A stretch of 60,122 nt of DNA, taken from positions 1 through 60,122 of the IMG/VR virus record IMGVR_UViG_3300030098_003345; one strand, given 5' to 3'. How positions within the stretch are numbered: position 1 is the first letter of the stretch; the number at the start of each line of letters is the position of its first letter. This stretch comes from a virus. Its lineage: Duplodnaviria > Caudoviricetes. The notes under the pieces were generated by a model, which was not told the origin of the DNA, made no database searches, and worked only from the letters and a program-made list of their open reading frames with translations. Below are positions 14,994 to 60,122 of the stretch, piece by piece. The position numbers were made by a program, and so were the translations under genes.

Positions 14994-17900
14994 CTAATCC
15001 GCAAGTTTATCTAACATATCTTGGACTTCCTTCTTACTCGGCTTATCTTCGGTAGATTTAGATTTTTTCTTTTTGTTAGTAGGTCGGTAAGAGTAGGAGA
15101 CCCCCAATAAATCATACATTGCATCTTCATCCATACCATCGGTAAATATTTCCGCAAGCCCTACGAGAGGGTCTGCTTGTACACCTACACCAATCTCTGT
15201 TAGAACTTGTGCTGCCTTTAATATTTTATCAGCATCATCATACTTAACTCCGTTGTGCCATTTTTTATAGATACTTCTTACAGGGTTAGTTGGTTGAACT
15301 ACTGTCTTTCTATCCTCATCTACCCAATCTGCCCAAGCCTGTTCTGCCGTTTCGCCAAAAAAAGGTATCTGATAAATAAGGTTAAGACCAAACATTGCAT
15401 CTCTCATACGAGCAAACGCTTCTGCTCTATCTTTAGGGTCATCACTTGTAATCTTAAATATATTAGCAGCACCGGTGAACAATACGTTGGCAACGGCGGC
15501 ATTTAAGTAAAGTGAACGTATATCTTCAAGCTTAATTTTAGAAGGGTCTTTAGTTTTAATTGCCTCCTGAGTTTGCCTTCCAAGATTGGTTGTTGCCTGC
15601 ATAACCTTGTTCATTTGTAAGAACAAGGTACTACCAAACATAGTAAATGCCCTTGTAAAAGCGTGAGGATTCATTTGTAAAGGAATTTTTTCAGTAGCTC
15701 TACGAGTTTGCTGAGTAGCATTGTAATCATTAAACTCTTGCAAAGCTTGAGCTTTACTCATTCCATTTTTAATATTACGTCTGTAGTTTACCATATACCC
15801 CATAACACCCATAATATCTCCAATGATAGTTGGGGAAGCAGCTATCCTTCTTCCTCTCCTTCCAAGCTTTGCCCACATAGCTTGGTTAGTTTCAAAATCC
15901 TTGAATGTAGGTTGCCCTGATTCTAATCCCATCAAGTCTCCTTTAACACCAAGCTCTATCCTTTTTCTAAAAATAGCCGACATATTCATAGCCTCAGAAA
16001 GCGGTCTACTTTCTAATCCAATATGTTTACCTGATACCTTCTCTGCTCCCAAAACTGCAATCTCAGCTAAAAGATTAGCAGCTAACATTGCGGTATCCAT
16101 CATAAACATCACAATATCTACCCCTGCGGTTGCCTTACCTTTTCTATAACGATACTTTTCTAAAGCGTTAATAAATGAGGTAGCCTGCTTAGGTATCTGC
16201 ATCAGCTTCAATGCTAAAGCAAAAGATGTATAACGACTCTGTAGCCAATTTAGCGCTTTCGTAAGTTTACTTGGGTGCTTAGTAAAAGCGTCAGGATTAA
16301 TGGCATAGTTAATAGCATTTCTTACAACCGATGTTAATGACATTGACTCCATTAGACTTTTAGTGTAAGGGTTATCAAATATCCCTTGAATAATCTTTGT
16401 AGGCATAGCGTAAGCCTTATACCTTTCCATAGTTTTAATGTGAGTTTCTAATGTAGCAGCAAAGTCTACATCTAACTCCACCCCGCTTTTTATATTCGAC
16501 CTTACCTTCAATGATGGTGCCGACTCTGCATTAAATATTTTACTAAAATCTCCGGTAGACAAAATGTTTTCAGTTTCCTCTGTCTGAAGCGTCTTTGTTG
16601 GGAAATAGTTTTCTATATATCCAAGATTCACATCATTAACCTGCCTATAAACATCGTTAACCTCATTGTAATATTCATTACTTAAGAAGTTGACTATCTT
16701 GTCGGAAACACTTACGAGTTGTGGACCAAGAAAAGCTTCTACCTCCTCCATAACCTGTGGTGTAAATCCTTGCTTTTCTAATTTGTCACGCTGCAAATCG
16801 TTTTTATAGAGAGAGTAGATACGCAACAGTTGGTCAACACTTCCATTCCATTCCTCAGCAGTCTTTCCTATCGTACCATCCTTATTGATTTTCCTAACCA
16901 TCACCGGCATAGTTCCTGACGTATAAAGAAGCTCCCTGACTTGTTCCATCCCCCTATCTATACCTTCGATACTATTGACTATCTCATCTAACTTATTTTG
17001 AGTTCTGAAATACCCTTCCATATTAGCCTCATCAGCTCGGTTTAATCTGTTATAGATGTTCTCGGTAAAGAAATTACCTGAAATATCCATCTTGTTCATT
17101 AAGGTACCCATATGCTGAAGACTGTGTTTAAAACCTGCTATAAACTCAGAAAAGGTAGTCCACTTGTAATGTTTTATATATTCCATTATCCACTTAGAAT
17201 ACTTCTTATCGTGGTATAGCTTATGTATCTTGTCCCGTTCCATTATTAATTGGTTACGGTCTTTAGGTGTGCCATCCTTATCTAAAATAGCATCACCAAA
17301 ATCTTTAGTCATCTGAGCCTCGCCCTCTCTGTTGATGGCTTTTATCTGCTCGGCTCTTGCTTTTCTACGACTCTTGTATCGTCTTATACCCTCAGCATTG
17401 ACATCTTTTAAAGATGATAACAACAGTTGAGTATCTTCAAGACTCATATTTTCTAAGTCACTAAAGTTATCAAAGGCATAAGACAGGTTGAGTAACCTTT
17501 CCTCAGCTCTTGTTAGCTTTTCGTTTTGGTTCTCTTTTAGAATTGCTTCATTAATTAGAGATTCGTTCTCTGTTAATTCATCCAAGATTGCAAGCATTGC
17601 ATCGGTATCCCCCTTTATTACATTCTGTAGCACCTTATTGGCTGATTGCATAAAAGCCTGTGTCTCTGCAGCTATCCCTTTACTTTTCTTTTTCTTAGAT
17701 TCAGAAATCCTTACTTTAGATTTTTCTTGAACCAATTTTTTTATTTCCTTAACTACATCGTTCTTTATCCTCTTTCTAACAAGCTTTATTTCCTTCTCTA
17801 TCTTTCTCATATCATTAAGGATACTTGCATCTGTAGCCTTTGCAATGATATTGTTCAGCCTATTGACTGTACCTGTAGTTATATTCTCTGTCTTAGGAAG

Positions 17901-20900
17901 AGCTTTGCGAATCATTTCACGCACCGCTAACTTAACGCTTTGTAAGTTATCAGAAGCCTCCTTACGGGTCTTTATCCTTTGTTTAATGGCATCTATCTCT
18001 CTTTGTACAGAAACATTAGCACGAGTATCTATCGTCTTATCTAAGGCTATAATAAGGGAGTCTTGAGTCTGCTTAGGTTGAGCCTCAAATATTGGTTCAG
18101 CCTTTAAAATTTCAATAGCCTTTAGTCTTATTTGAGATTTAGTTTTTGGGGGATTTGTGATTGTTGTAGCTACACCAACTCGTGGATACCTGTTAAGAAT
18201 CTCTTGGTCGGTCAACGCAAACAATGTCGGGTTAGCCTCACGTAGTTGAGTGGCACGTTCAGCCTTTTGCTCTGCAGTCTCTCTTTGATACGTTGTAGTG
18301 CGTGTAGGTTTAGTATATGCCTTTAATTTTTTTCGTACATTATCAAACAACACCTTTCCTTCACTCATCCCGCCCTCTACATTACCAAACTCCGGTATAA
18401 CGGCTACGTCATTAAATAATGTGTTATCAAGATTAACTACTAAGGCTTCGTTTATTTGAGCTTTCTTAAATCCTTCCTCCTTTAATACTATTCTAATTGC
18501 CGCATCACTATATCCTTGCTCTCTTGCGGAAGAAACAATAGTGGTTGCTGACATATCATTAATACTATTTCCTGTCATCAACTGCAGTCCGCTTTTAATC
18601 TCTTGTGCTTGAGCTTCGGCAAATACCTGCTCTCCTGACAGTAAATCCACTACCACACCTTGCAAAAACTCATCAAGCGTTAAATTTTGAACCTCTTCAT
18701 CACTCATTTTTGATAGACCAACTAAAGATTTAACAAAATTGTATAGCTTGTTAAGCCAATTTTTAAAGTCAGCTTTTATAGAGGCATCAGCAAATGATTG
18801 TCCTTTATCTCCAATTGCGGTGGCAAGAGCTTCTTCTAAAATAAATTCTCTTATCTCTGCTTCTGTCGCACCATCTTCCTTCATACTCTTGATAACCCTC
18901 TTATACTCAGGACTATTTTCAATTTGTGAGATGTAGGTATCGTCAGTTTCTATAAGCTCTATCCCTTTCTGATATAACTTGGGGTTAAATTCTTTAGCAA
19001 CGGAGTTCCATATGTGACCAAATTCGTGAATAGGTGTGTTAGTATTTGCAGCTTTAGGATTTAGGTAAAGCTTACCCTTGTATACGGCTCCATACACCTT
19101 ATTTTCATCACGTTGTGCTTTTGTCGTAACCGCCACCACATCAGGTTGAATTAATAAATTATCAAACTGTTTTTGGTTTGTTATCACTTCTATATTAGGG
19201 AATGATTTACTAAGTAGATTTACAAAATTATCATAAGACCTTGCTGTTATAGGAGAAACCGTCTGCGCTTGTGAGGCACTAACAGAGGCTTTATACATTG
19301 TATCGGACATAGCCTCAGCCGCAGTAAATGGTCGTGTGGATGCAGGAGTAATAACCTTGCCTGTTTTTTTATCTCTCTTTTCAGCTACTTTCTTTTTTAT
19401 TACCTTTCCAAACTTAGCTTCAATCGTATCCTTAAAGCCTTTTATCACATTCCAAAACGGAGTAGTCTCTTGTAATAAAGCGACAGGCTTACCCCTTAGA
19501 TAAAAATCATAGCTTGGGTGACTTGGTATGCCTTCTTGTTTTTGTTGTTCAGGACTAACTATAGCATCATCAATTGTCTTTTCAGTTACCTTGTTACCTT
19601 CACTATCCTGAATCTCTAAGACCATAGTCATTGTACCCGCAGGTAAGTCTTTTACAAAGTCTTCTGTTAAAGGTTCTCTAAGGCTTTCTATAGAGATGCC
19701 CTTAGATTCTAAGGTCTTCCCTACATCGGTTTTGGAAGCCTTACCCTCCACCGGTATTATATTCTTAAATACCTTAGCTTTTGTTCTAAGATTTAAAACG
19801 TCTATATTTTCCAACAATTCCGTTACGTTTGTGGATTTAGCAACTATATCGGCAACTTTTTGGGTATCATCAAAATCTTTTTCACGGAAGACCTTCCCAT
19901 CTAATTGAGCTACTATTTGGTCGAATATAAGTTTCTGAGTATCGGTATCTAACTTAGACAATTCATTTAAGAACTGTGTCCTTATAGCTACATTGGAACT
20001 GATAGCATCAGGGTTCATATTATATACCACCGTATAGTCAGATTTGACTGCTCCCTTTGCAATCTTGCGTACTGCATTTTCATCAACATTTGCCCACGCA
20101 ATATTATGCTTACGCATTCCTTCTTGCAACGAAAAGAATGGACCACCCATAAACTCTTCATTAGTTACAAGTTGGTCTGCCATTATAAGATTAATCTTTT
20201 TCCCAATCAGTTCACTTAGACCCATACGTTTCAGGTCTTTAGCAAGGGATGTGTTCTCATCTATAACGATAGGAATTGTTTCCACATTAACCTCTTCTAC
20301 GGTGTATGAGTTTTCTGCCATACTCTCCTGCTGAAGCTCCATCAATCTCGTTGCCTCTTCAGTCAGCTTCTCTTGTCTCTGCTCGTTAGTTATACCTGCA
20401 GCTAATTGGAATTTTGGATTTTCTTTTTTAATAAAAGCTTCTAAGTCTTTTACCTCTTGTTCTAAATTTTGTTTTCCTTCTACTTGCGTTTTAATCTCTT
20501 CACTTGGAGTTATAATAGCGTCAATCTCCACCTGCATTCCATCCCCAAACATTTCTGCATATCCCGGAGCATTGGCAATAATGTTTTGAGCATCTTTTTT
20601 TGTTGACACAATTGGACCAACTTGGTTTGTAACTTTATTAACAACTACCCATTTACCATTTTCTGCTGCAGGACCAAATGTGCTACCATCTCTGTTGTCA
20701 ATTATCTCAAAGTCTTTAGACCAAATCTTTTTATCGGTCTTATTCATTGTATAAGTAACCATCTCATCTTCAATCTTCTCAGTAGGAGCTACCTCTATGT
20801 TAGCCGACAAAACCTTTACTGCATCTTCTTTAGACTCTACATTTGACTCTATGATTTCTTCTCCTTGTCTTACCGAAAACCTACCATCAGGCTGAGTGAT

Positions 20901-23900
20901 AATCTGACCTTTAACCTCGTTAGTTGTCTCGCCTATTACATCCTCAACTATCGCACCCTCTTCTACTTGTATCTCTGTGGTAGTAGGTTTAGTTGAAATA
21001 GTTAACGCTTCTGAGACTTCAGTTGTCGTAGTGGTCGGAGATTCTTGGGTTTCTTCCGAAACCTCCCGTACAGTCTCTTCCACCGCTTGTATATCTCCGG
21101 TTTGTTTATCTTGAGAAACTGTTCCTGCTTTTCGCTTTGAAATGGCATCTTTTTTATTTATTAATAGTTTTTGTACTTCAGGGTCATATAATACCGCCGT
21201 AGACCTATGGAGTATTTGGTTTAAATTTTTAGCTTTGTTAATGTTTTTAATAAATTGGTCACGAGTCACCTGTTTTCCTCGCCACATATATTTACCGGTT
21301 TTACCTCTTTCAGTCTTACCTAAAATTAAGTCCAAGTTTACTTGATTTGCTACACCTTCATTTAGTAGCTTTCTATATTCTTTAGTGGTAAGCTCACCCT
21401 CATCCAACATCTTCTTATATTGAGTCCGTTGTTTTACACTTAATCCTTGCACATTTCCTGTTTCTGCTATCTGTGCTATCTCAGCATTTATCTCTTTTAT
21501 CTTTTCTTTAAATACAAGTTTTGTATTTTGTGTTTGGCTTAATTTATTACGAGCTTCAATAAGCCTACCTAATCTTGTCTTAACATCTTTTTGTGTAGTG
21601 ACTTTGGTTCCTCTTACGGCTAAAGAACTAATCGGTCCCCCTGTCACAGATACAAGTTCATTAACCTCTCTCCTTATACCAATATTTTCTCTAATCTTTT
21701 GTGCTTGGTCTGCATCTATCTTTCCAAGCTTGAGCATATTGTCGGTCCACGTATTTATCCGGGTATCACCTGTAGACTCATTCATTATAAAGCTCATATC
21801 GTTGGCAAGCTTATCTGCAAGCCCTACATTGCTTCTATTCCTTTGGTCGATATAAACATTAATTGCCGCATTAGATATGTTATTACCTCCTGCACCGCCT
21901 GCCTCAGCTCCAATGTCTTTCCAATCAAGCTCATCTCCTACACTTGCTTGTGCCAATCCTTCACCCAATGCTTCCATAGCCGGGTCAAAGACTGCACGTT
22001 CTGCTGCAAATAGACCTAATGCTTGAGAACGAGTAGCAAAAGTTCCGGCTTTAAAAACCCTACCGGCAAGACCTGCTGACATAAAATCTACTGCTCCAAT
22101 TACAAGACCTCTCTTAACACCCCTATCATTGGCTTCCTCCCATACAGACGGCTCCATCAACCCTTCAGCAACCTCGTCAGGATTAAGTGTATTAAAATTG
22201 TGATTTTCTAAAGCCTCAATAACGGCATTAGAATATTCCATTGCAAAACTTGTTGCTCCAAATCCGGTCCTTATACCCCAAACCATTCCGGTCCCCGCAC
22301 CACTTATTGCACCGGGAATTGCACCCACTCCACCGGCAGGTGCTCCGGTTGCTGCTCCAATACTTCCTCCAAGAGTGGCACCTTGTGCTGCGGCAGTAGG
22401 TATAAGCCACATCCCATAGGGCAACATTTGACTTATAGAGTTAGCCGCTAAACCAACCATCCATTCTGCAGGGTCCCTTAAGAAGTTATTCCATCCCTCT
22501 TTCCCACTCACCTGCCCAAAGTATCGTGCATTTACCCGTGATGTTTTACCGGATTGCTCCGATAGATGTTGAGCAATTTTTTCGGAGGCTAATTTTCTAT
22601 CTTCAGGGTCTTCAATGTCTACAATGCCTGCAGCCATTAAGACTATTTGCTCCATAGCATTACCACGAGCTAACCCATCATTCCAAGCCGTTGCTATGCT
22701 TTCCCAATCATCTACATAGGCATCTTGAATGTTTTTATTTTCTTTCTTAGAAAAATAAGTCTGAGCAATATCAAACTTAAGTGCTGCTAAATTTTCAGTA
22801 GCAGCCACAGTATTTAATTGGCTAATGTATATATCTTTTAGTTTAGTTTCATATCCGTCTTTAGGAATGTAATTAACAATATCCTTTGCTCTTATACCAA
22901 GATTATTTATAACATCAGCATCTATCTTCATATAATCAATCTGTGCTTGTCTATTTATCTCAGCCGCTTTACCTGCAGCTTGTCGTTGTTTTTTCGCTAA
23001 ATATCCATCAAAGTCTTCTCTTGCCCTTGCTATTTCTTGGTCATCTATATAGATTTCAAATAACCTATCTTCTGTTTCCTCTATCTCTTTTATTCTTTCT
23101 CCGGCATCAGACCGTAACACACCATTGACATAGAATTTACCATAAAGTTCTTTCTCTTCTTCTGTTAGATTGGATTCTAATCTGTCTCGGGGGTCACCCT
23201 CTAATACTTCTTCAAGGAATAATCTTTCATCCCGTGCCTGTTCGTACATTTCAAACCCTTCTCGTGCTACATTATAATCAAGACCTCTCTCTGAGTAAAA
23301 GCGTTCTGCCTCCAAATCTACGGTGCTTACATCTTTCCACCCTCCCTCTGCAAAATCCTGTGCCTTTTCTTGAGAATCAAAAGAAAACACTTCGCCTCTT
23401 TTCTTGGCTTCCGTAATCGCATCTTCAAAAGACAATACCTCCCAATCTATAGGTTTAGAAGTTACATTATCAGGGTCTTTTGGGAATAGGGTTGGTGCTA
23501 CATAATGTTTACCATCTTCCTCATAAGACATAAATTTTACAGTAGATTGTGAGCCATCAGGATTTACTAACGCTACAGGTCTTATAGTCTTAGCTCTTAA
23601 GGCATTATCTAATATAGTTTCTTCCGCCTCATCTAACTCTCTACCTACAGGAACTGCATTATCTCTTACAAAGTTTTTCAGTTTCTCGGCATATCTCTCA
23701 TCTAAATATGCGGTAAAGTTATCAAGCTCAATAACCTCTTTTGCATTGGTATAGATATTTCTTATTACTGCCCTATCGAACCCTAAAAAACCATAATCCT
23801 CCACTACAAAACCGTATTTTCCTAAAGTAGAGTTGAGGACAGAAACAACATCCTGAGATTGTCCTGACATTAAATCGGAGTTTATAATATCTAAGGACTT

Positions 23901-24614
23901 ATTAAAGTCTTCATCTCCTGCAAGTCCTGCACGTTCAGTATTCTCCTTAATCGTTTCTTCTGCTTGTCTCTTAGCTTCTTGTTCAATTAATAACGCTTGT
24001 GCCGCCTTTGTTTCTTCAGCTTCCTCAAGTTCTGTGGCAAGTTTATTTTCGGCTGCTATCTTTTCTTGGGTTTCTTTTTGTTGTTGCACATAAAGCTGAC
24101 CCGCTTTACTTTCTTTCCACTTATTTCTGTATTCCGTTACTTCATCAAGTGCAGCTTGAGTGCTGAGTGGACTCTCCGATGCAAGACTCGTATAGTCAGG
24201 ATTAAATCCTATGGCTTCATAAAAATCTTTTTCTGAAATAGGAGTATCGGAATTAAGGATATCACTCTCCCTATCTTCTCTTGATACCGACCCAATATCT
24301 TCCGATATTGAATCCCCAACTTGCTGCTCTTGTGGAGTCTGAATTGGATTTTTTTTTTCAAACTGAACAGACACCTCCTCCCATTGATTGCCAAACCGTT
24401 CTTGAAGTTCGTTCTCTGTAAACTCTTTTCCGTTAGGAGCAATATATGTAGATTCAGATATTTCTTCAGTAGATACTTCTTGGATTGGCTCTGTGGATTC
24501 TACAAACTGACCTGAAGCCACAAGCGTGCCAAAGTCTTCTCCAAATCGTTGACGTAAATATGATTCTGTTAGAACTTTACCGTTTGGGGTTTTGTAGTGT
24601 TTTTCTTCTCCCAT
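14994..24614 (-). CDS. Giant internal virion/ejection protein (polyvalent-protein type) with zincin metallopeptidase motif
   Basis: 3206 aa; TPIHEFGHIW plus downstream EEALA; Gly/Ala-rich hydrophobic stretch; last gene of the virion operon. Confidence 0.7.
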   Translation of the reverse strand: MGEEKHYKTPNGKVLTESYLRQRFGEDFGTLVASGQFVESTEPIQEVSTEEISESTYIAPNGKEFTENELQERFGNQWEEVSVQFEKKNPIQTPQEQQVGDSISEDIGSVSREDRESDILNSDTPISEKDFYEAIGFNPDYTSLASESPLSTQAALDEVTEYRNKWKESKAGQLYVQQQKETQEKIAAENKLATELEEAEETKAAQALLIEQEAKRQAEETIKENTERAGLAGDEDFNKSLDIINSDLMSGQSQDVVSVLNSTLGKYGFVVEDYGFLGFDRAVIRNIYTNAKEVIELDNFTAYLDERYAEKLKNFVRDNAVPVGRELDEAEETILDNALRAKTIRPVALVNPDGSQSTVKFMSYEEDGKHYVAPTLFPKDPDNVTSKPIDWEVLSFEDAITEAKKRGEVFSFDSQEKAQDFAEGGWKDVSTVDLEAERFYSERGLDYNVAREGFEMYEQARDERLFLEEVLEGDPRDRLESNLTEEEKELYGKFYVNGVLRSDAGERIKEIEETEDRLFEIYIDDQEIARAREDFDGYLAKKQRQAAGKAAEINRQAQIDYMKIDADVINNLGIRAKDIVNYIPKDGYETKLKDIYISQLNTVAATENLAALKFDIAQTYFSKKENKNIQDAYVDDWESIATAWNDGLARGNAMEQIVLMAAGIVDIEDPEDRKLASEKIAQHLSEQSGKTSRVNARYFGQVSGKEGWNNFLRDPAEWMVGLAANSISQMLPYGMWLIPTAAAQGATLGGSIGAATGAPAGGVGAIPGAISGAGTGMVWGIRTGFGATSFAMEYSNAVIEALENHNFNTLNPDEVAEGLMEPSVWEEANDRGVKRGLVIGAVDFMSAGLAGRVFKAGTFATRSQALGLFAAERAVFDPAMEALGEGLAQASVGDELDWKDIGAEAGGAGGNNISNAAINVYIDQRNRSNVGLADKLANDMSFIMNESTGDTRINTWTDNMLKLGKIDADQAQKIRENIGIRREVNELVSVTGGPISSLAVRGTKVTTQKDVKTRLGRLIEARNKLSQTQNTKLVFKEKIKEINAEIAQIAETGNVQGLSVKQRTQYKKMLDEGELTTKEYRKLLNEGVANQVNLDLILGKTERGKTGKYMWRGKQVTRDQFIKNINKAKNLNQILHRSTAVLYDPEVQKLLINKKDAISKRKAGTVSQDKQTGDIQAVEETVREVSEETQESPTTTTTEVSEALTISTKPTTTEIQVEEGAIVEDVIGETTNEVKGQIITQPDGRFSVRQGEEIIESNVESKEDAVKVLSANIEVAPTEKIEDEMVTYTMNKTDKKIWSKDFEIIDNRDGSTFGPAAENGKWVVVNKVTNQVGPIVSTKKDAQNIIANAPGYAEMFGDGMQVEIDAIITPSEEIKTQVEGKQNLEQEVKDLEAFIKKENPKFQLAAGITNEQRQEKLTEEATRLMELQQESMAENSYTVEEVNVETIPIVIDENTSLAKDLKRMGLSELIGKKINLIMADQLVTNEEFMGGPFFSLQEGMRKHNIAWANVDENAVRKIAKGAVKSDYTVVYNMNPDAISSNVAIRTQFLNELSKLDTDTQKLIFDQIVAQLDGKVFREKDFDDTQKVADIVAKSTNVTELLENIDVLNLRTKAKVFKNIIPVEGKASKTDVGKTLESKGISIESLREPLTEDFVKDLPAGTMTMVLEIQDSEGNKVTEKTIDDAIVSPEQQKQEGIPSHPSYDFYLRGKPVALLQETTPFWNVIKGFKDTIEAKFGKVIKKKVAEKRDKKTGKVITPASTRPFTAAEAMSDTMYKASVSASQAQTVSPITARSYDNFVNLLSKSFPNIEVITNQKQFDNLLIQPDVVAVTTKAQRDENKVYGAVYKGKLYLNPKAANTNTPIHEFGHIWNSVAKEFNPKLYQKGIELIETDDTYISQIENSPEYKRVIKSMKEDGATEAEIREFILEEALATAIGDKGQSFADASIKADFKNWLNKLYNFVKSLVGLSKMSDEEVQNLTLDEFLQGVVVDLLSGEQVFAEAQAQEIKSGLQLMTGNSINDMSATTIVSSAREQGYSDAAIRIVLKEEGFKKAQINEALVVNLDNTLFNDVAVIPEFGNVEGGMSEGKVLFDNVRKKLKAYTKPTRTTTYQRETAEQKAERATQLREANPTLFALTDQEILNRYPRVGVATTITNPPKTKSQIRLKAIEILKAEPIFEAQPKQTQDSLIIALDKTIDTRANVSVQREIDAIKQRIKTRKEASDNLQSVKLAVREMIRKALPKTENITTGTVNRLNNIIAKATDASILNDMRKIEKEIKLVRKRIKNDVVKEIKKLVQEKSKVRISESKKKKSKGIAAETQAFMQSANKVLQNVIKGDTDAMLAILDELTENESLINEAILKENQNEKLTRAEERLLNLSYAFDNFSDLENMSLEDTQLLLSSLKDVNAEGIRRYKSRRKARAEQIKAINREGEAQMTKDFGDAILDKDGTPKDRNQLIMERDKIHKLYHDKKYSKWIMEYIKHYKWTTFSEFIAGFKHSLQHMGTLMNKMDISGNFFTENIYNRLNRADEANMEGYFRTQNKLDEIVNSIEGIDRGMEQVRELLYTSGTMPVMVRKINKDGTIGKTAEEWNGSVDQLLRIYSLYKNDLQRDKLEKQGFTPQVMEEVEAFLGPQLVSVSDKIVNFLSNEYYNEVNDVYRQVNDVNLGYIENYFPTKTLQTEETENILSTGDFSKIFNAESAPSLKVRSNIKSGVELDVDFAATLETHIKTMERYKAYAMPTKIIQGIFDNPYTKSLMESMSLTSVVRNAINYAINPDAFTKHPSKLTKALNWLQSRYTSFALALKLMQIPKQATSFINALEKYRYRKGKATAGVDIVMFMMDTAMLAANLLAEIAVLGAEKVSGKHIGLESRPLSEAMNMSAIFRKRIELGVKGDLMGLESGQPTFKDFETNQAMWAKLGRRGRRIAASPTIIGDIMGVMGYMVNYRRNIKNGMSKAQALQEFNDYNATQQTRRATEKIPLQMNPHAFTRAFTMFGSTLFLQMNKVMQATTNLGRQTQEAIKTKDPSKIKLEDIRSLYLNAAVANVLFTGAANIFKITSDDPKDRAEAFARMRDAMFGLNLIYQIPFFGETAEQAWADWVDEDRKTVVQPTNPVRSIYKKWHNGVKYDDADKILKAAQVLTEIGVGVQADPLVGLAEIFTDGMDEDAMYDLLGVSYSYRPTNKKKKSKSTEDKPSKKEVQDMLDKLAD

Positions 24615-39066: not shown

Positions 39067-39102
39067 AAAAAGGGGGAGTGTCTTTAAAGACACCCCCTCT
39101 TT
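39067..39102 (-). terminator. Terminator after the capsid gene, with the 16-bp palindrome (39078-39093) as its upper stem
   Basis: Minus strand AGAGGGGGTGTCTTTAAAGACACTCCCCCTTTTT. Confidence 0.8.
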
Positions 39103-41756: not shown

Positions 41757-41809
41757 TAGATTAGATTTTTTACAAAGTTAATAAATATTTTTGGTTCATT
41801 TTATTCAAT

Positions 41810-44245
41810 TTATCTTGGAGAAAATTCTGCCAAATCAAAACCGTCTAAACTGTCTTCATTAGATTCAAAATTCTGAGGAGGCAAGTTGTTTCTACGCTGA
41901 TTAATCAATTTTGACTGTTGCGTGTTTTGTTGACTAATGCGTTTTTCTTTTGCGTTTTCTCGTTGTGTTTCTCTCTCTTGAAGAGCATTTTCCGAAATAT
42001 CTCTTAATTGTTGATTATACTCAAATTCTTCAGCCATAAGCATAGATTTTAACTTAGCTTCATTATTCATCTTTTCAATTTCAAATGCTATCTCTGCTTT
42101 CTTTAATTGCATCTTACCTTGCATTTCTGCTTGGAGTTTTTGCATTGCGGCTTGTGAAGCCATCTCTTGAGACTTCAAGTTTTGTTGGGCAGTTATGGCT
42201 TGTTTTTGCGTTGCCATCTTTTCATCCTGTTCTTGCTTTTGTTTACGTTTTACTTTTAATAGTTGATTAGCAAGTTTAAGATTTTTTATTTCCCGTATAT
42301 CAATTGCATCTTCTAAATTAATATCGTTTTTAGATAAAGCCATTTGAACATTAGCTTCAAGTTTAGCTTTTTCTTCTTCATCGGGAGAGATTTCTATAAA
42401 TATTCCAAAATCATAAATATACAAATCCACAATGTCATTTAAAATAGATACATTATATTTTCCAATTTTATTTGCAAAGTCATCTTTAAAGTCAGCATAT
42501 TCTAAGATATCTGCGATTCTATAAGTTAAGGCTTCAGAAATACTTCTAAATAGATATAAACTACCATCAAGAATATGTCGAGTAGCAGTATTGGAATTTA
42601 ATGCAGCTAATTTTTGTAATCCCACCAAAGAATTAGGGTCAGGTGTACTTCCATCTCGTGCTTCATTTAATCCTGTTACTGTTCTAATCATATTCAAATA
42701 GTGATTATAATTAGTAATAAGCATTTGAGTTTTAGATGCTCCTGAATTAGAGGTAAGTTGCTGAATAGGGACTTTGGCTTGATTATACTCTCCATCTTGA
42801 GTATAGGACCTCCCTATAACAGACCCTGTTTGAAAATAAAGCCGTAATGCGTCTTCGGGGTTGTATGCATTCCCGGTACCTAAATCCACTTCGTTAAGAC
42901 CATCAGCATCAATATATACTCCATCAGGAACAGTACGAGAAATAACTTGTTGTAACTTCAAATGAGTTAGTTGAATTAAATCGGCAAAAGGAATCATCCT
43001 TCTTACAAGAGATTCAAGAACTCCCTTATACATTCGAGGTGCACAAGCTACATAGTTAGGTAAAGCGTGTTGACTTGATGACTTAGGTCTTACCATATTC
43101 TTCGCAAGTTCCCATTTTAAGACAATATTAGTCCCCATCACCATCACCCCATCATACCATACGTCAATAGTTTTTTCAAACTTTTCAAACCTTCCTTCCT
43201 CCATCATTTCTACAGGAGGATTAAATTGGTCATCTTTCTCTATTACCTTTGTACCACCTGTCTCCATTATTTTTTTCTTATAGACCATTTTTTTAGTAGT
43301 CTTATAATTGAAATACAATAAAGTGCAAGTATCCCGGTAAAATATATCGTTTTGATAGTATTGGGCTACATTGTAATAATCAAACCACGTTTGACTATAT
43401 TGGGAAATCTTTTCTAAATCATCATTAGTTAATGTAGGGTCAATCTTTTTACACTCAATAATGGGAATAGTTTTTACCTCACCCCAATAAAAACAATCTT
43501 TAAAATATGGGTCTTCTGTATAACTATACACCACATTGGCAGGGTCTACATAATCTATTTCTACTCCGGAGCCTTTTAGGAATTGATGTTTAGCCACTCC
43601 GATTCCTAAGACCGTCATATCGTAATCTACCCGTTTACGTACATCTATATAGTGGTTTTCTTCAAGTATAGTATTAATAGCTTCTTCTTCCGCAATTTCT
43701 ATCGCAGGTTTATAGTTGAGCTGCATATATAATGATAACTCTTCATCAGTTTGCGGAAGCTCATCTGCAGGAACGACAAAAGGGTCAACCCCTGTTTTTT
43801 GTTGAATAATTTGCAAGGTGGGCTTTGCCGCCATTTGCCCGGTTATCATATCTTGATATTTAGAACGCTTCGCTTGAGACATTGCATCTTGTGCATAGGC
43901 TTTCACCTTAAACATTCTATCCGACATTCCATTTACCACAATGTCTACAAATTTGGGAATAATAGGAACAGGGGTCCAATCTAAATTTAGATAAGACAAA
44001 TCACCATCAATTGCTAATTCATTTTTGTATTTAGCAATAGATTGCTCCCCTCTTGCGTATAAACGTAATCTGTGGAAGTCTCTCCATTGATTGTAAAATC
44101 TGCAGCCATTCCCATCTTTACGAAACCATTCATATTGAATAGCCTGTCCAATCTGCAGTCCATATTCAACGGTTGCTTTTTCCGCATCCGAAACGAATTG
44201 GCTTGGGAATCCTGCAGATGAAATATTTAGTTTAACCTCTTTCAT
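41810..44245 (-). CDS. Portal protein
   Basis: 811 aa after the terminase; PIIPKFVDIVVNG, TGLNEARDG; Q-rich coiled-coil barrel tail. Confidence 0.8.
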   Translation of the reverse strand: MKEVKLNISSAGFPSQFVSDAEKATVEYGLQIGQAIQYEWFRKDGNGCRFYNQWRDFHRLRLYARGEQSIAKYKNELAIDGDLSYLNLDWTPVPIIPKFVDIVVNGMSDRMFKVKAYAQDAMSQAKRSKYQDMITGQMAAKPTLQIIQQKTGVDPFVVPADELPQTDEELSLYMQLNYKPAIEIAEEEAINTILEENHYIDVRKRVDYDMTVLGIGVAKHQFLKGSGVEIDYVDPANVVYSYTEDPYFKDCFYWGEVKTIPIIECKKIDPTLTNDDLEKISQYSQTWFDYYNVAQYYQNDIFYRDTCTLLYFNYKTTKKMVYKKKIMETGGTKVIEKDDQFNPPVEMMEEGRFEKFEKTIDVWYDGVMVMGTNIVLKWELAKNMVRPKSSSQHALPNYVACAPRMYKGVLESLVRRMIPFADLIQLTHLKLQQVISRTVPDGVYIDADGLNEVDLGTGNAYNPEDALRLYFQTGSVIGRSYTQDGEYNQAKVPIQQLTSNSGASKTQMLITNYNHYLNMIRTVTGLNEARDGSTPDPNSLVGLQKLAALNSNTATRHILDGSLYLFRSISEALTYRIADILEYADFKDDFANKIGKYNVSILNDIVDLYIYDFGIFIEISPDEEEKAKLEANVQMALSKNDINLEDAIDIREIKNLKLANQLLKVKRKQKQEQDEKMATQKQAITAQQNLKSQEMASQAAMQKLQAEMQGKMQLKKAEIAFEIEKMNNEAKLKSMLMAEEFEYNQQLRDISENALQERETQRENAKEKRISQQNTQQSKLINQRRNNLPPQNFESNEDSLDGFDLAEFSPR

Positions 44246-55207: not shown

Positions 55208-56827
55208 TTAAGACCCTTTCTCATAGTTGTCATAGCTACGTGCCATAGTTACAATAGCATTAGTTGATAATATTGTAACGGCAACCGATACTGCATTTTG
55301 CAATGCTTGGCGGGTTACTTTCACAGGGTCTATAACTCCCATTGTCATTAAGTACCCGTATTTCTCTTTTTTAACGTCATAACCATATTGTTGACCCTTT
55401 GCATTTGCATATATCTCCAAAGCATCCAATCCTGCATTTGCAAGAATCTGAACTAAAGGAGCTTTTAATGCGTCAGCTAAAATTCCATAAGCAGTTTTCT
55501 TCGCACTATTTTTTTCGTCATTATATTTAATGGTATATGACTTATGGTGATGGTAAAGGGCTAACCCGGCACCCGGCAGAATACCTTCTTCAAGTGCCGA
55601 CTTTACTGCACAAACCGCATCATCTACTCTGTCATATAATTCTTTTTGCTCAAGGTCAGTATTACCACCTACATACACCACTCCTATACCACCACATAAA
55701 GATGCAATACGCTGATTAATGAAATCTTTATCAATTTTATTTTTAGCATTCCCTAATGCCTCCTGCAATTCTGACACACGATTTTGAATCTCTTCTCCTG
55801 TCTCTTTATCATCTTTGACGATGACCGTTGAGTCACGGCTAACTATCACCTTAGCACAATGACCCAAATCGTTGAAATCAATCAAACTCAAGTCATCGCC
55901 TGTCTTCTCAGAATAATAAGTAGCACCTACACTAATTGCTATATCCTGCATTAATTCGTGTTGCCTATAACCAAAATCCGGAGGATTAATCGCACAGATT
56001 TTTAATCCATTCTTCATCACGTTGGCTGCAAGGGTATTAACAACATTTCCCGAACAAGGAGCTATCATTAATAATTTTTTACCCTCATTTATTATAGGCT
56101 TTAATATATTTTCTATTTGTAAGATGTTACTAATCTCCGTATCACATACCAACACATAAGTGTCTTCAAGGACACACTCATCTCGTTTTTGGTCATTAAT
56201 AAATAAGGTGGATGCATAACCTCTTTTTACTTTTAATCCTTTAGTTGTTTCGTAAAAAGTGTCTGAGGTTTTGCTTTTTTCCACCGTGACTATGCCATCA
56301 TTACCGACACTTTCGTGTACATCTGCAATTATGTCACCAATCTCTTTGTCATTGTTGGCAGAGATAATAGCTACATCTCGCAATCGTTTCGCATCTAATT
56401 TCTTTCCTTTCGTTTTTAAATCCTTTGCAATTACTTTCGTCTCGTCAACCAAATGTCGCAGCACTTCGGTTCGGTTTGTCTCCGCACCAATATATTGCGT
56501 TCCTGCATCCACCAATGCTTCAGCTAATACAATTGCCGTAGTAGTACCATCACCGGCTGAGGAAGCCGTTCTGTCTGCTGCCTCTTTCATCATCCTAACC
56601 GCAAGGTTTTCTACAGGGTCCATTAATGAAATAGACTTAGCTACTGTAACACCATCCTTAGTGACAGTAATGCCGTGTAAATGTTCAGGTGATTCTATGA
56701 GTACGGTATTCCCTCGTGGACCTAATGTGGATTTAACTGCGTTTGCAATTTTGTTTATGCCGCTAATTAATTTGTTGCGCCCTTCACCCGCAAAGTGAAG
56801 CTCCTTTGGATTGAATCCTTGTTGCAT
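55208..56827 (-). CDS. groEL: Chaperonin GroEL
   Basis: TLGPRG, VTKDGVTVAK, AGDGTTT, RVDDA, GVIDP; no GGM tail; TATCTTTG box at 56862-56869. Confidence 0.95.
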   Translation of the reverse strand: MQQGFNPKELHFAGEGRNKLISGINKIANAVKSTLGPRGNTVLIESPEHLHGITVTKDGVTVAKSISLMDPVENLAVRMMKEAADRTASSAGDGTTTAIVLAEALVDAGTQYIGAETNRTEVLRHLVDETKVIAKDLKTKGKKLDAKRLRDVAIISANNDKEIGDIIADVHESVGNDGIVTVEKSKTSDTFYETTKGLKVKRGYASTLFINDQKRDECVLEDTYVLVCDTEISNILQIENILKPIINEGKKLLMIAPCSGNVVNTLAANVMKNGLKICAINPPDFGYRQHELMQDIAISVGATYYSEKTGDDLSLIDFNDLGHCAKVIVSRDSTVIVKDDKETGEEIQNRVSELQEALGNAKNKIDKDFINQRIASLCGGIGVVYVGGNTDLEQKELYDRVDDAVCAVKSALEEGILPGAGLALYHHHKSYTIKYNDEKNSAKKTAYGILADALKAPLVQILANAGLDALEIYANAKGQQYGYDVKKEKYGYLMTMGVIDPVKVTRQALQNAVSVAVTILSTNAIVTMARSYDNYEKGS

Positions 56828-58731: not shown

Positions 58732-59817
58732 ATGAGAAATTTAAACAACACAGGGCACAAATTCGAGTGTATCGGAGATACCGATATAAGAGGTGAAATT
58801 GTTGGCTATGGTAGCAAAGCCGAAGCCATAAAAATCAACAAAGCACTCCCTTTAGATTTCAACGGAATCCGGATGCAAGACAGGAAGAACGTCTTGTTTG
58901 ATGGGGTTGAAGCTACGTCAAAATTCACTATCGGCTTTGAAGTAGAGAAAAACACATTTCATAGGGGATGCGTTAAAGAATACCCATTGTTCTGTGGATT
59001 CGAACGGGATGGTTCTTGCGGATTTGAAGCGGTTACTCACGTTCTACCTTTGTTAGGGAAATCATATTGGAGAACGAAAGTTTTCAATATGTTCCACGAA
59101 GCACAGAGAGTAATTGAAGATAGCTACTCCCCATCTGATGTGTCTTGCGGTGGACACATTACCGTAGGTGTAGAGGGGATGGATGGAGCTGATTTGATGG
59201 AAAGAATGCGAAAATTTGTTCCTATCCTGTATGCCATCTTTCGTAAGAGGTTAGCTAATACCTTTTGCTATGGCAATCCACAGATGGTAGATACAAGAGG
59301 TGGTGTAGGAATCAATATTAATGTAGGCAAATACTCTGTAGCTCTCAATAAGCACTTTGGTGTAGAAATTCGCTTACCATCAAGAGTAACGTCTGTTAAG
59401 CAGATGATTCGCCGATATGAGCTAATGTATCATATCGTTGATTTTGCGGTCAATCATCCGAATGCTACTTACAACAGGTTCATACGAACAATTGAACCAA
59501 TCTTACTTTCAATGTACAATCAGGATGCAGACAAAGTTACGCAGTTAGTTGAATTGTCGAAGCATTTCCGCAAGTTTATCTTTACGGGTAAAGTAGATAT
59601 TAATACTATAGGATGGGTAAATGGATGGTGGAGAAGTAATTTTCCTTATAGCGGTAGTAACTACATTCCAAGCGAGAATTACCAACGCAGTTTGGTATCT
59701 CTCATTCAACAGAATGGTGGTGTTTCTGATGTAAGAGATTTATGGTACAACAATGTGTTATCCTCACGTCTTGACAATTCAGTTTACAATCCAATTGGCG
59801 GTATCAGTAATTTCTGA
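58732..59817 (+). CDS. Putative amidoligase (COOH-NH2 ligase, glutamine synthetase/GCS-like fold)
   Basis: FTIGFEVE, ERDGS..FEAVT, SCGGHIT, KYSVAL, VEIR motifs. Confidence 0.75.
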   Translation: MRNLNNTGHKFECIGDTDIRGEIVGYGSKAEAIKINKALPLDFNGIRMQDRKNVLFDGVEATSKFTIGFEVEKNTFHRGCVKEYPLFCGFERDGSCGFEAVTHVLPLLGKSYWRTKVFNMFHEAQRVIEDSYSPSDVSCGGHITVGVEGMDGADLMERMRKFVPILYAIFRKRLANTFCYGNPQMVDTRGGVGININVGKYSVALNKHFGVEIRLPSRVTSVKQMIRRYELMYHIVDFAVNHPNATYNRFIRTIEPILLSMYNQDADKVTQLVELSKHFRKFIFTGKVDINTIGWVNGWWRSNFPYSGSNYIPSENYQRSLVSLIQQNGGVSDVRDLWYNNVLSSRLDNSVYNPIGGISNF

Positions 59818-59824
59818 CTCAGTA

Positions 59825-59854
59825 AGGGGTGGTGTCTTCAAAGACACTACTCCT
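59825..59854 (+). repeat. 16-bp palindrome (59832-59847) inside an extended hairpin directly before hammerhead 2
   Basis: AGGGGTGGTGTCT-TCAA-AGACACTACTCCT; 13 pairs including two G.U. Confidence 0.9.
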
Positions 59855-59902
59855 CTGTCGATAGGTGTGTGCCTATCCTGATGAAGCGAAAGCAGAAACA
59901 GA
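59854..59902 (+). ncRNA. Type III hammerhead ribozyme, copy 2 (predicted cut after C59859)
   Basis: TCTG-TC | GATAGG-TGTGTG-CCTATC | CTGATGA | A-GC-GAAA-GC-A | GAAA | CAGA. Confidence 0.85.
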
Positions 59903-59922
59903 AATCTTTAAACCATAACAAA

Positions 59923-60122
59923 ATGAAGACATTAAACACTATTCAAAACGCAACCCTAACACTTATAGCACTATTTGTGCTCACATCAATTATTAGGGTA
60001 TTGGTTCACATCGTACAAACGCATCCATTTCAACTCTCCAATATTATTTCATTTGGAGTGCTTAGTTTGATAGTATATGTGATGTGTGCAATCCTACTCG
60101 GTTTATGGAAAGAATCCTTTCG
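59923..60122 (+). CDS. Small two-TM membrane protein spanning the origin (68 aa, stop at nt 105-107 on the circle)
   Basis: Hand translation MKTLNTIQNATLTLIALFVLTSIIRVLVHIVQTHPFQLSNIISFGVLSLIVYVMCAILLGLWKESFRG; A-rich leader; missing from the ORF track because it wraps. Confidence 0.7.
   Translation, partial: MKTLNTIQNATLTLIALFVLTSIIRVLVHIVQTHPFQLSNIISFGVLSLIVYVMCAILLGLWKESF
60023..60122. repeat. Terminal direct repeat (copy 2)
   Basis: Matches nt 1-100 with one mismatch. Confidence 0.95.

Follow-up and report, generated by a model that had tools for sequence, protein, structure and literature searches.

A hammerhead-like sequence whose stem II is reduced to two Watson-Crick pairs lies between two genes of a tailed phage, and it raises the question of whether such an element still acts as a ribozyme and, if so, what it does for the transcript that carries it. 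The window considered here is the whole virus record, IMG/VR IMGVR_UViG_3300030098_003345, analysed at its full length of 60,122 nucleotides (positions 1-60,122).

Portal and large-terminase genes found in the 60 kb genome identify the virus as a tailed phage. Bases 1-98 are identical to 60023-60120, and because of this 98-nt exact terminal repeat the assembly closes on itself (circular or terminally redundant); the final two bases of the record (60121-60122, CG) mismatch bases 99-100 (AG). By large terminase, the closest GenBank relative is the uncultured podovirus MW202828 (73% identity). The best-matching Flavobacterium phages are ~45% identical, and remoter matches include phages of Cellulophaga, Tenacibaculum and Maribacter. 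Based on these terminase relatives, the host is probably a member of the Flavobacteriaceae, which agrees with the A-rich leaders lacking a Shine-Dalgarno sequence in this genome. The phage also encodes a Cpn60/GroEL-type chaperonin (PF00118, E 8e-58; 55208-56827, minus strand). A 3206-aa ORF (14994-24614, minus strand) adjoins the structural genes and has no PHROG family at E<=1e-5; its product is a giant virion-associated protein.

Hammerhead architecture of the spacer and its second copy

The element at 59854-59902 on the plus strand, here called HH2, is a genuine type III hammerhead motif in an intergenic position, within the 105 nt that separate two genes of a long plus-strand block. Behind the stop codon TGA of the upstream gene (59815-59817), the spacer carries CAGTAAGGG at 59820-59828, which has only two exact matches in the window, one at HH2 and one at a second hammerhead, HH1. 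A 12-bp hairpin occupies 59826-59853 and includes the two G.U pairs described in a first-pass annotation of this DNA, at 59828.59851 and 59831.59848. The same annotation held that the hairpin folds fully only as plus-strand RNA; the folding energies are -22.4 kcal/mol for the sense versus -14.0 kcal/mol for the antisense strand.

Immediately downstream is the 5' strand of stem III, UCUGU (59854-59858), which pairs with ACAGA at 59898-59902. Cleavage is predicted at 59859/59860, after C17 of GUC, where the hammerhead consensus position agrees with the site proposed earlier. Stem I has six pairs (GAUAGG/CCUAUC, 59860-59865 with 59872-59877), deduced from sequence and covariation, and is closed by the loop UGUGUG. 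The core segments CUGAUGA (C3-A9, 59878-59884) and GAA (G12-A14, 59895-59897) flank stem II, AGCGAAAGCA at 59885-59894, which consists of an A59885.A59894 mismatch, one G-C and one C-G pair, and a GAAA loop, exactly as the annotation had read it. A 20-nt A-rich leader without a Shine-Dalgarno sequence (59903-59922) then leads to the ATG of a small gene at 59923, likewise as annotated; leaders resembling it precede other genes as well (repeat family D10).

The core of HH2 is complete, with all 13 bases present: C3 U4 G5 A6 N7 G8 A9, G12 A13 A14, the pair A15.1-U16.1 (A59898-U59858) and H17 (C59859). The topology is that of type III, since stems I and II are closed by loops and stem III is open. 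G10.1-C11.1, which normally opens stem II, is absent, and A59885 and A59894 stand in its place. Alternatively, G59886-C59893 may itself correspond to 10.1-11.1, with an additional A to either side; the sequence fits both descriptions. The active fold (-30.3 kcal/mol) lies 3 kcal/mol above the nearest-neighbour MFE fold (-33.3 kcal/mol), in which CAG at 59820-59822 pairs with CUG at 59855-59857 in the 5' strand of stem III, as an alternative to that stem. This CAG...CUG pairing appears in the MFE folds of both HH1 and HH2.

The gene upstream of HH2 (58732-59817, plus strand, from ATG 58732) encodes a 361-aa protein that was annotated as an amidoligase. Pfam, PHROGs and PDB sequence searches gave no significant match for it, and the label stands as a lead from a protein language model only: PF12224 occurs in 12% of the members of the second-ranked look-alike cluster, and 26 of 30 matches share that family set. 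We therefore call it a possible amidoligase. GTG 58696, the start assigned by mechanical ORF calling, was rejected because it falls within a palindrome discussed below, and ATG 58732 is likelier. Downstream, the small gene (59923-60120 and across the assembly junction to 107, plus strand) encodes a 68-aa membrane protein with two helices, seen as two hydrophobic segments in the translation; its stop codon TAA lies past the junction at 105-107. The protein is holin-like (phrog_8269 holin, E 1.7e-5).

The layout of HH2 is shared, part by part and in the same order when read base by base, by HH1, as had been claimed for the two copies. HH1 follows a plus-strand gene with class II GATase and GGACT domains (1063-2166). 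For that gene, ATG 1063 is the likelier start, giving the N-terminal Met-Cys expected of a class II amidotransferase, and GTG 1027, again assigned by mechanical ORF calling, was rejected since it falls within the palindrome. The full HH1 layout of CAGTAAGGG, hairpin, hammerhead and leader spans 2171-2276 on the plus strand, with the hairpin at 2177-2203, the hammerhead at 2204-2255 (stem II A.A plus GCC-AAAA-GGC, supported by sequence and model) and a predicted cut at the consensus position, 2209/2210. HH2 and HH1 thus bracket five genes over ~2.35 kb, from the holin-like gene to the GATase/GGACT gene.

A recurrent short-stem form in a covarying family

There are two occurrences of the pattern CTGATGA-N4-30-GAAAC in the window, with 0.18 expected, and 1 of 100 shuffles reached two. 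At the gathering score, Rfam returned no hammerhead at HH2 or HH1; around HH2 none was reported even at E<=10, and at HH1 the one match was to Hammerhead_II with 16 bits. Rfam misses both copies because of their unusual stem II. On RF00008, for which the gathering score is 48.5, a canonical sibling (L039:13339-13393) reaches 47.5 bits (E 8e-10). We rejected the type II reading of HH1 suggested by the 16-bit match, as the downstream GAAACAG completes a type III fold.

Covariance model R2 was built from 27 relatives, all of which have G10.1-C11.1, with the window sequence and the A.A variants left out, and was searched against the entire window on both strands with filters off. HH1 scored 66.3 bits (E 1.6e-17) and HH2 57.1 bits (E 9.3e-15), and the next-best match reached 14.8 bits (E 0.054). 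We regard this match, at 41789-41834 on the minus strand, and a second weak one at 23070-23132 on the minus strand (11.8 bits) as noise. MW202828 gave no match to the model. Among GenBank phages, the sole blastn match of the element is a 22-nt stretch of Pelagibacter phage HTVC106P, which lies in a coding repeat, has no model match and is attributed to chance.

We surveyed IMG/VR with two pattern scans, both of which fixed CUGUC, CUGAUGA and GAAACAG. The scan that also fixed both A residues gave 36 loci, and the scan that allowed any stem II gave at least 119 DNA stretches, some of them shared with the 36 loci. With the window included, the matches listed number 167. Those with 4 or more stem I pairs number 140, of which 124 are unique; the 27 matches with fewer than 4 stem I pairs were dropped, and some of these are probably real, bulged hammerheads. 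Of the 124 unique members among the matches listed, 100 have a same-strand ATG ORF beginning within 120 nt (median 27 nt) and 84 have a same-strand ORF ending <=150 nt upstream (median 35 nt).

Sixty-one members with a UGUGUG-type loop I, among the matches listed, were aligned; in these members, which were chosen by that loop I, UGUGUG in loop I and GAAA or AAAA in loop II are retained. In hammerheads, a tertiary contact between loops I and II makes cleavage fast. There is strong covariation across stems I, II and III in these viral contigs. In the alignment, 93.6% of cells are paired, versus 65.9% in shuffles (0 of 500 reach the observed value) and at most 45.3% when the partners are slid. 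All six stem I pairs are 100% paired and changed on both sides, with the first four biased by the fixed patterns and the stem I filter, and stem II has double changes in three of four column pairs, in which rows of the insert class are misaligned. The fifth, outermost pair of stem III is unconstrained by pattern or filter and is paired in 55 of the 61 members (UA 29, AU 14, CG 6, GC 5, GU 1, other 6). Searching seven related loci with R2 identified 12 hammerheads, including relatives with stem III CCGU/ACGG in place of CUGU/ACAG and relatives with a GUU cut site. Related genomes have one to three hammerheads each, spaced 1-4 kb.

Stem II falls into several classes, whose frequencies are biased by the fixed patterns and the stem I filter: among the matches listed, 53 of the 124 unique members have the canonical G-C start, 41 carry a single-base insert behind A9 (U in 36, A in 4, C in 1), 20 have an A.A mismatch plus 2 bp, 5 an A.A mismatch plus 3 bp, 3 a U.U mismatch plus 2-3 bp (L051, L078 and L091), and 2 are of other kinds. 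The exact 10-mer of HH2, AGCGAAAGCA, recurs in 18 of the 124 among the matches listed. The 25 A.A members in this set have 17 distinct stem I sequences, every one of which is fully paired, and because the short-stem form recurs with so many different paired stems, we deduce that the A.A form seen in HH2 is probably active. A pattern scan of MAG contigs for the A.A form gave 43 matches, four of which are further A.A examples, binned to Paceibacterota, Saccharibacteria and Micrarchaeota; the other 39 lie in coding DNA and were put down to chance.

In the closest relative among the matches listed (L038), synteny was established by blastn. Its HH1-syntenic site keeps A.A+GCC and has compensatory changes in stem I, and at its HH2-syntenic site stem II has 5 bp and an inserted U. 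Given the latter, the stem II form of HH2 is probably derived, but the A.A design itself is maintained. Another related genome (G005; 13562 region, L060:1638-1689) has three hammerheads in 2.3 kb, which carry G-C, U.U and A.A, respectively, at positions 10.1/11.1 of stem II.

GNRA loops form a sheared G.A pair. The A.A mismatch, the two Watson-Crick pairs and the sheared G.A would therefore give four stacked layers, equal to a canonical 4-bp stem with an AAAA loop, and by this analogy loop II would be held at an unchanged height for contacting loop I. A literature search found no report of a natural A10.1.A11.1 hammerhead variant. HH2 is a rare but recurrent short-stem variant of an already described phage ribozyme type.

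A genome-wide palindrome in the upstream hairpin

The top of the hairpin that abuts stem III in HH2 is a 16-nt palindrome, GTGTCTTCAAAGACAC, at 59832-59847. With up to 3 mismatches, this palindrome occurs at 17 sites in the genome versus 0.6 expected, each 16 nt long and starting at 1027, 2183, 3244, 4509, 5550, 7089, 8030, 11119, 14943, 24628, 28757, 39078, 46255, 56160, 57795, 58696 and 59832. Of the 14 copies that can be oriented, 13 have the CA centre on the strand that is sense for the neighbouring genes. Four related phage genomes of ~60 kb preserve the palindrome without a letter changed and have 9-16 matches each (counted on both strands, so that symmetric copies score twice), and MW202828 has zero matches. 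A text search of the literature did not find the string.

Most copies are a bare hairpin of 6-7 bp. Some are situated 13-20 nt before an ATG (starts 1063, 3279 and 58732, and 24614 and 28740 on the minus strand), and others are within long ORFs. Long GC-rich stems occur in three copies only, the two before the hammerheads and the minus-strand copy at 39078, which lies behind a virion structural gene, is followed by UUUUU and, from its sequence, looks like a classical terminator. The HH2 hairpin was rejected as an intrinsic (Rho-independent) terminator, as it is followed by UCUGUC with no U tract and was not reported by a terminator scan. An N4-like hairpin promoter was also considered for the palindrome and set aside, as the 3206-aa protein has no PHROG match. 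Because the palindrome occurs 17 times across the genome, the HH2 hairpin was not made for the ribozyme, and it is not ribozyme-specific in this phage.

A hairpin abutting stem III is nevertheless a general trait of the family. Hairpins of <= -8 kcal/mol were found in the 45 nt upstream of 94 of the 124 unique members among the matches listed versus 38 of 119 controls drawn from 340-400 nt farther upstream, and in 78 of these 94 listed members the hairpin ends 0-3 nt before CUGUC. Since hairpin and stem III are contiguous in HH2, it is plausible that the hairpin stacks on the weak 5-bp stem III. The CAG...CUG pairing was rejected as a conserved switch, being found in 3 of 77 hairpin-bearing relatives among the matches listed, and is a local feature at most.

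Spacing relates the ribozyme to its surroundings. At three plus-strand junctions without a ribozyme, the distance from hairpin to ATG is 19-20 nt, and at HH1 and HH2 the distance from ribozyme end to ATG is 20-21 nt. The leader after HH1 is a member of a repeat family, D10, that also occurs before other genes. Given these matching spacings and the generic character of the leader, the 49-nt ribozyme looks like an insert separating this leader from an equally generic intergenic hairpin. No hairpin-hammerhead module was found reported in a literature search.

Proposed role in transcript processing

Hammerhead cleavage leaves a 2',3'-cyclic phosphate on the upstream product and a 5'-OH on the downstream product. 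We consider it likely that HH2 is a functional type III hammerhead in a long plus-strand operon and that it processes polycistronic mRNA as follows. Docking of stem I (59860-59877) with the miniature stem II would follow transcription of the spacer, and the 5-bp stem III would form, stacked end to end on the preceding 12-bp hairpin. The RNA would then cut itself after C59859. The upstream mRNA would be left with the hairpin and the 6-nt tail UCUGUC, ending in a 2',3'-cyclic phosphate; pairing of the upstream CAG with CUG, which both this phage and L038 allow, could cut the tail down to 2 nt. The downstream mRNA would begin with a 5'-OH and the folded ribozyme body, followed by the A-rich leader of 20 nt and the small membrane-protein gene. 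The first-pass annotation had proposed the same two ends, which follow from established hammerhead chemistry, and a protective 3' hairpin on the upstream mRNA, an effect that remains hypothetical; its interpretation is thus supported in part. Together with HH1, 2.35 kb further on, HH2 would release the five-gene block from the polycistronic transcript, and each released piece could have its own stability and translation. From sequence, we infer both that HH2 cleaves and that it is most likely used to cut the long phage mRNA into pieces.

Several observations stand against this explanation: G10.1-C11.1 is absent or displaced in HH2, Rfam reports no hammerhead at HH2 even at E<=10 and only the 16-bit match at HH1, the nearest-neighbour MFE differs from the active fold, the family sets are biased by the fixed patterns and the stem I filter, the closest GenBank terminase relative (MW202828) lacks a model match, and the hairpin is a genome-wide repeat that may stand next to the ribozyme without a functional reason. 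The first of these underlies the possibility that HH2 is a decayed, catalytically dead relic of a canonical ancestor, whose activity was killed by the loss of G10.1-C11.1 and by the 2-bp stem II. The lack of an Rfam match at HH2 and the canonical 5-bp stem II with a U insert at the HH2-syntenic site of L038 are in keeping with decay, as are core variants that were inactive according to the text of Perreault et al. 2011 (PMC3088659). A relic would hardly keep an identical AGCGAAAGCA in 18 unique contexts, or accompany 17 different, perfectly paired stem I sequences in the A.A class, both among the matches listed, and all 13 of its core bases are intact. U.U analogues, reported active in the text of the same study (PMC3088659), also occur in this family (L051, L078, L091 and G005), and we judge the dead-relic explanation improbable. 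That HH2 resembles the hammerhead consensus by chance and has no RNA function could be argued from the shortness of the motif and the silence of Rfam; against this are the E value of 9e-15 with the independent model R2, the two copies in the same context and the family-wide covariation. The covariation and R2 scores exclude chance resemblance in practice, and we give it next to no weight.

A different alternative accepts an active ribozyme and assigns it the making of a defined, insulated 5' end for the small gene, which would make HH2 a natural counterpart of synthetic ribozyme insulators. The hairpin would then be unrelated, acting as a generic operator, weak terminator or protein-binding RNA hairpin, and protection of the 3' end would be irrelevant. 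Consistent with this, the palindrome is found at 17 sites, mostly without a ribozyme, and the distance between hairpin and ATG at hammerhead-less junctions (19-20 nt) equals that from hammerhead end to ATG here (20-21 nt). The hammerhead end lies 19-36 nt before the ATG in most of 100 cases among the matches listed, and in Flavobacterium phage elemoA a related hammerhead is found between divergently oriented genes, immediately in front of a small gene. Over many unrelated phage lineages, however, strong hairpins adjoining stem III are enriched (94 of 124 among the matches listed versus 38 of 119), and within this genome the long GC-rich stems are confined to the two ribozyme-linked copies and the terminator copy at 39078. 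We view a role restricted to the 5' end of the small gene as unlikely, and transcript processing by an active HH2 remains our preferred explanation.

A further possibility concerns the fate of the ~2.35 kb RNA that would be released between 59860 and, across the junction, 2209. Because HH1 and HH2 share the strands of stem III, its ends, ACAGA with the 5'-OH and UCUGUC with the cyclic phosphate, can re-pair into a complete hammerhead. They could be joined end to end by the reverse reaction of the ribozyme or by an RtcB-type ligase, yielding a circular phage mRNA. The geometry is the same as in viroid-like type III hammerheads, but in a DNA phage. If formed, the circle would encode the holin-like protein, three small proteins and the GATase/GGACT enzyme. 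We hold this outcome to be very improbable.

Both the kind of element and the role proposed for it are already in print, and the gain in principle is modest. As described in the text of Perreault et al. 2011, prophage and phage hammerheads flank genes, occur several to a genome and bracket short gene blocks, several prophage examples cleaved in vitro or in E. coli, and polycistronic RNA processing was proposed for phage hammerheads (PMC3088659). The text of that study also states that stem II is often 2 bp, calls G10.1-C11.1 the most conserved pair of the consensus and, in section 8, reports a U10.1-U11.1 mismatch as tolerated and active (PMC3088659). The text of a 2019 review considers the biological role of the many hammerheads in phage genomes still undefined (PMC6765202).

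HH2 shares with RF00008 type III the core (CUGAUGA, GAA, A15.1-U16.1 and the GUC cut) and the topology, and differs in having A.A at 10.1/11.1 and only 2 Watson-Crick pairs before its GAAA loop. Like the phage hammerheads described in the text of PMC3088659, HH2 and HH1 are intergenic, on the coding strand and of a class in which a 2-bp stem II is frequent, but those emphasised there are largely type II with pseudoknots, whereas HH2 and HH1 are type III. In the U10.1-U11.1 hammerheads of that text, a homo-mismatch replaces the same stem II pair, and U.U is also found in this phage family; the purine-purine A.A of HH2 is wider than U.U, and its activity is a prediction (PMC3088659). In the text of PMC3088659 there is no mention of an A.A mismatch or of a hairpin adjoining stem III; the paper's figures, Dataset S1 and Figures S6-S8 may bear on both.

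The proposed arrangement also resembles a protein-dependent system. At RNase III sites of phage T7, the cut falls just 3' of an intergenic hairpin, and the upstream polycistronic mRNA keeps a 3' hairpin. HH2, by contrast, would cut its own RNA without help from a host enzyme, leaving cyclic-phosphate and 5'-OH ends.

As an apparent insertion between generic parts, present in two copies that bracket a defined gene block, and with distant relatives that can be grown, the locus is a compact test case for the role of phage hammerheads, and the genome-wide palindrome and the possible circular RNA are the parts of most interest at the bench. Natural hammerheads with an A.A or U.U mismatch and a stem II of 2-3 bp form a recurrent class that escapes standard Rfam screening, so ribozymes in viromes have probably been undercounted. 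Among the cultivable relatives, Flavobacterium phage vB_FspP_elemoA_7-9A, which grows on Flavobacterium sp. BAL314, bears a related, unannotated type III hammerhead (L154:786-837, minus strand, equal to MT497017.1:19085-19136, minus strand), with the core CUGAAGA, a cut after GUA and scores of 29-34 bits. The nearest CDS upstream of it is at least 86 nt away on the opposite strand, and no same-strand gene precedes it within the 1.7 kb viewed. In another related viral contig, a DUF805b RNA motif (RF02914, 42.7 bits, above gathering; L045:3733-3765) lies ~530 nt downstream of a hammerhead.
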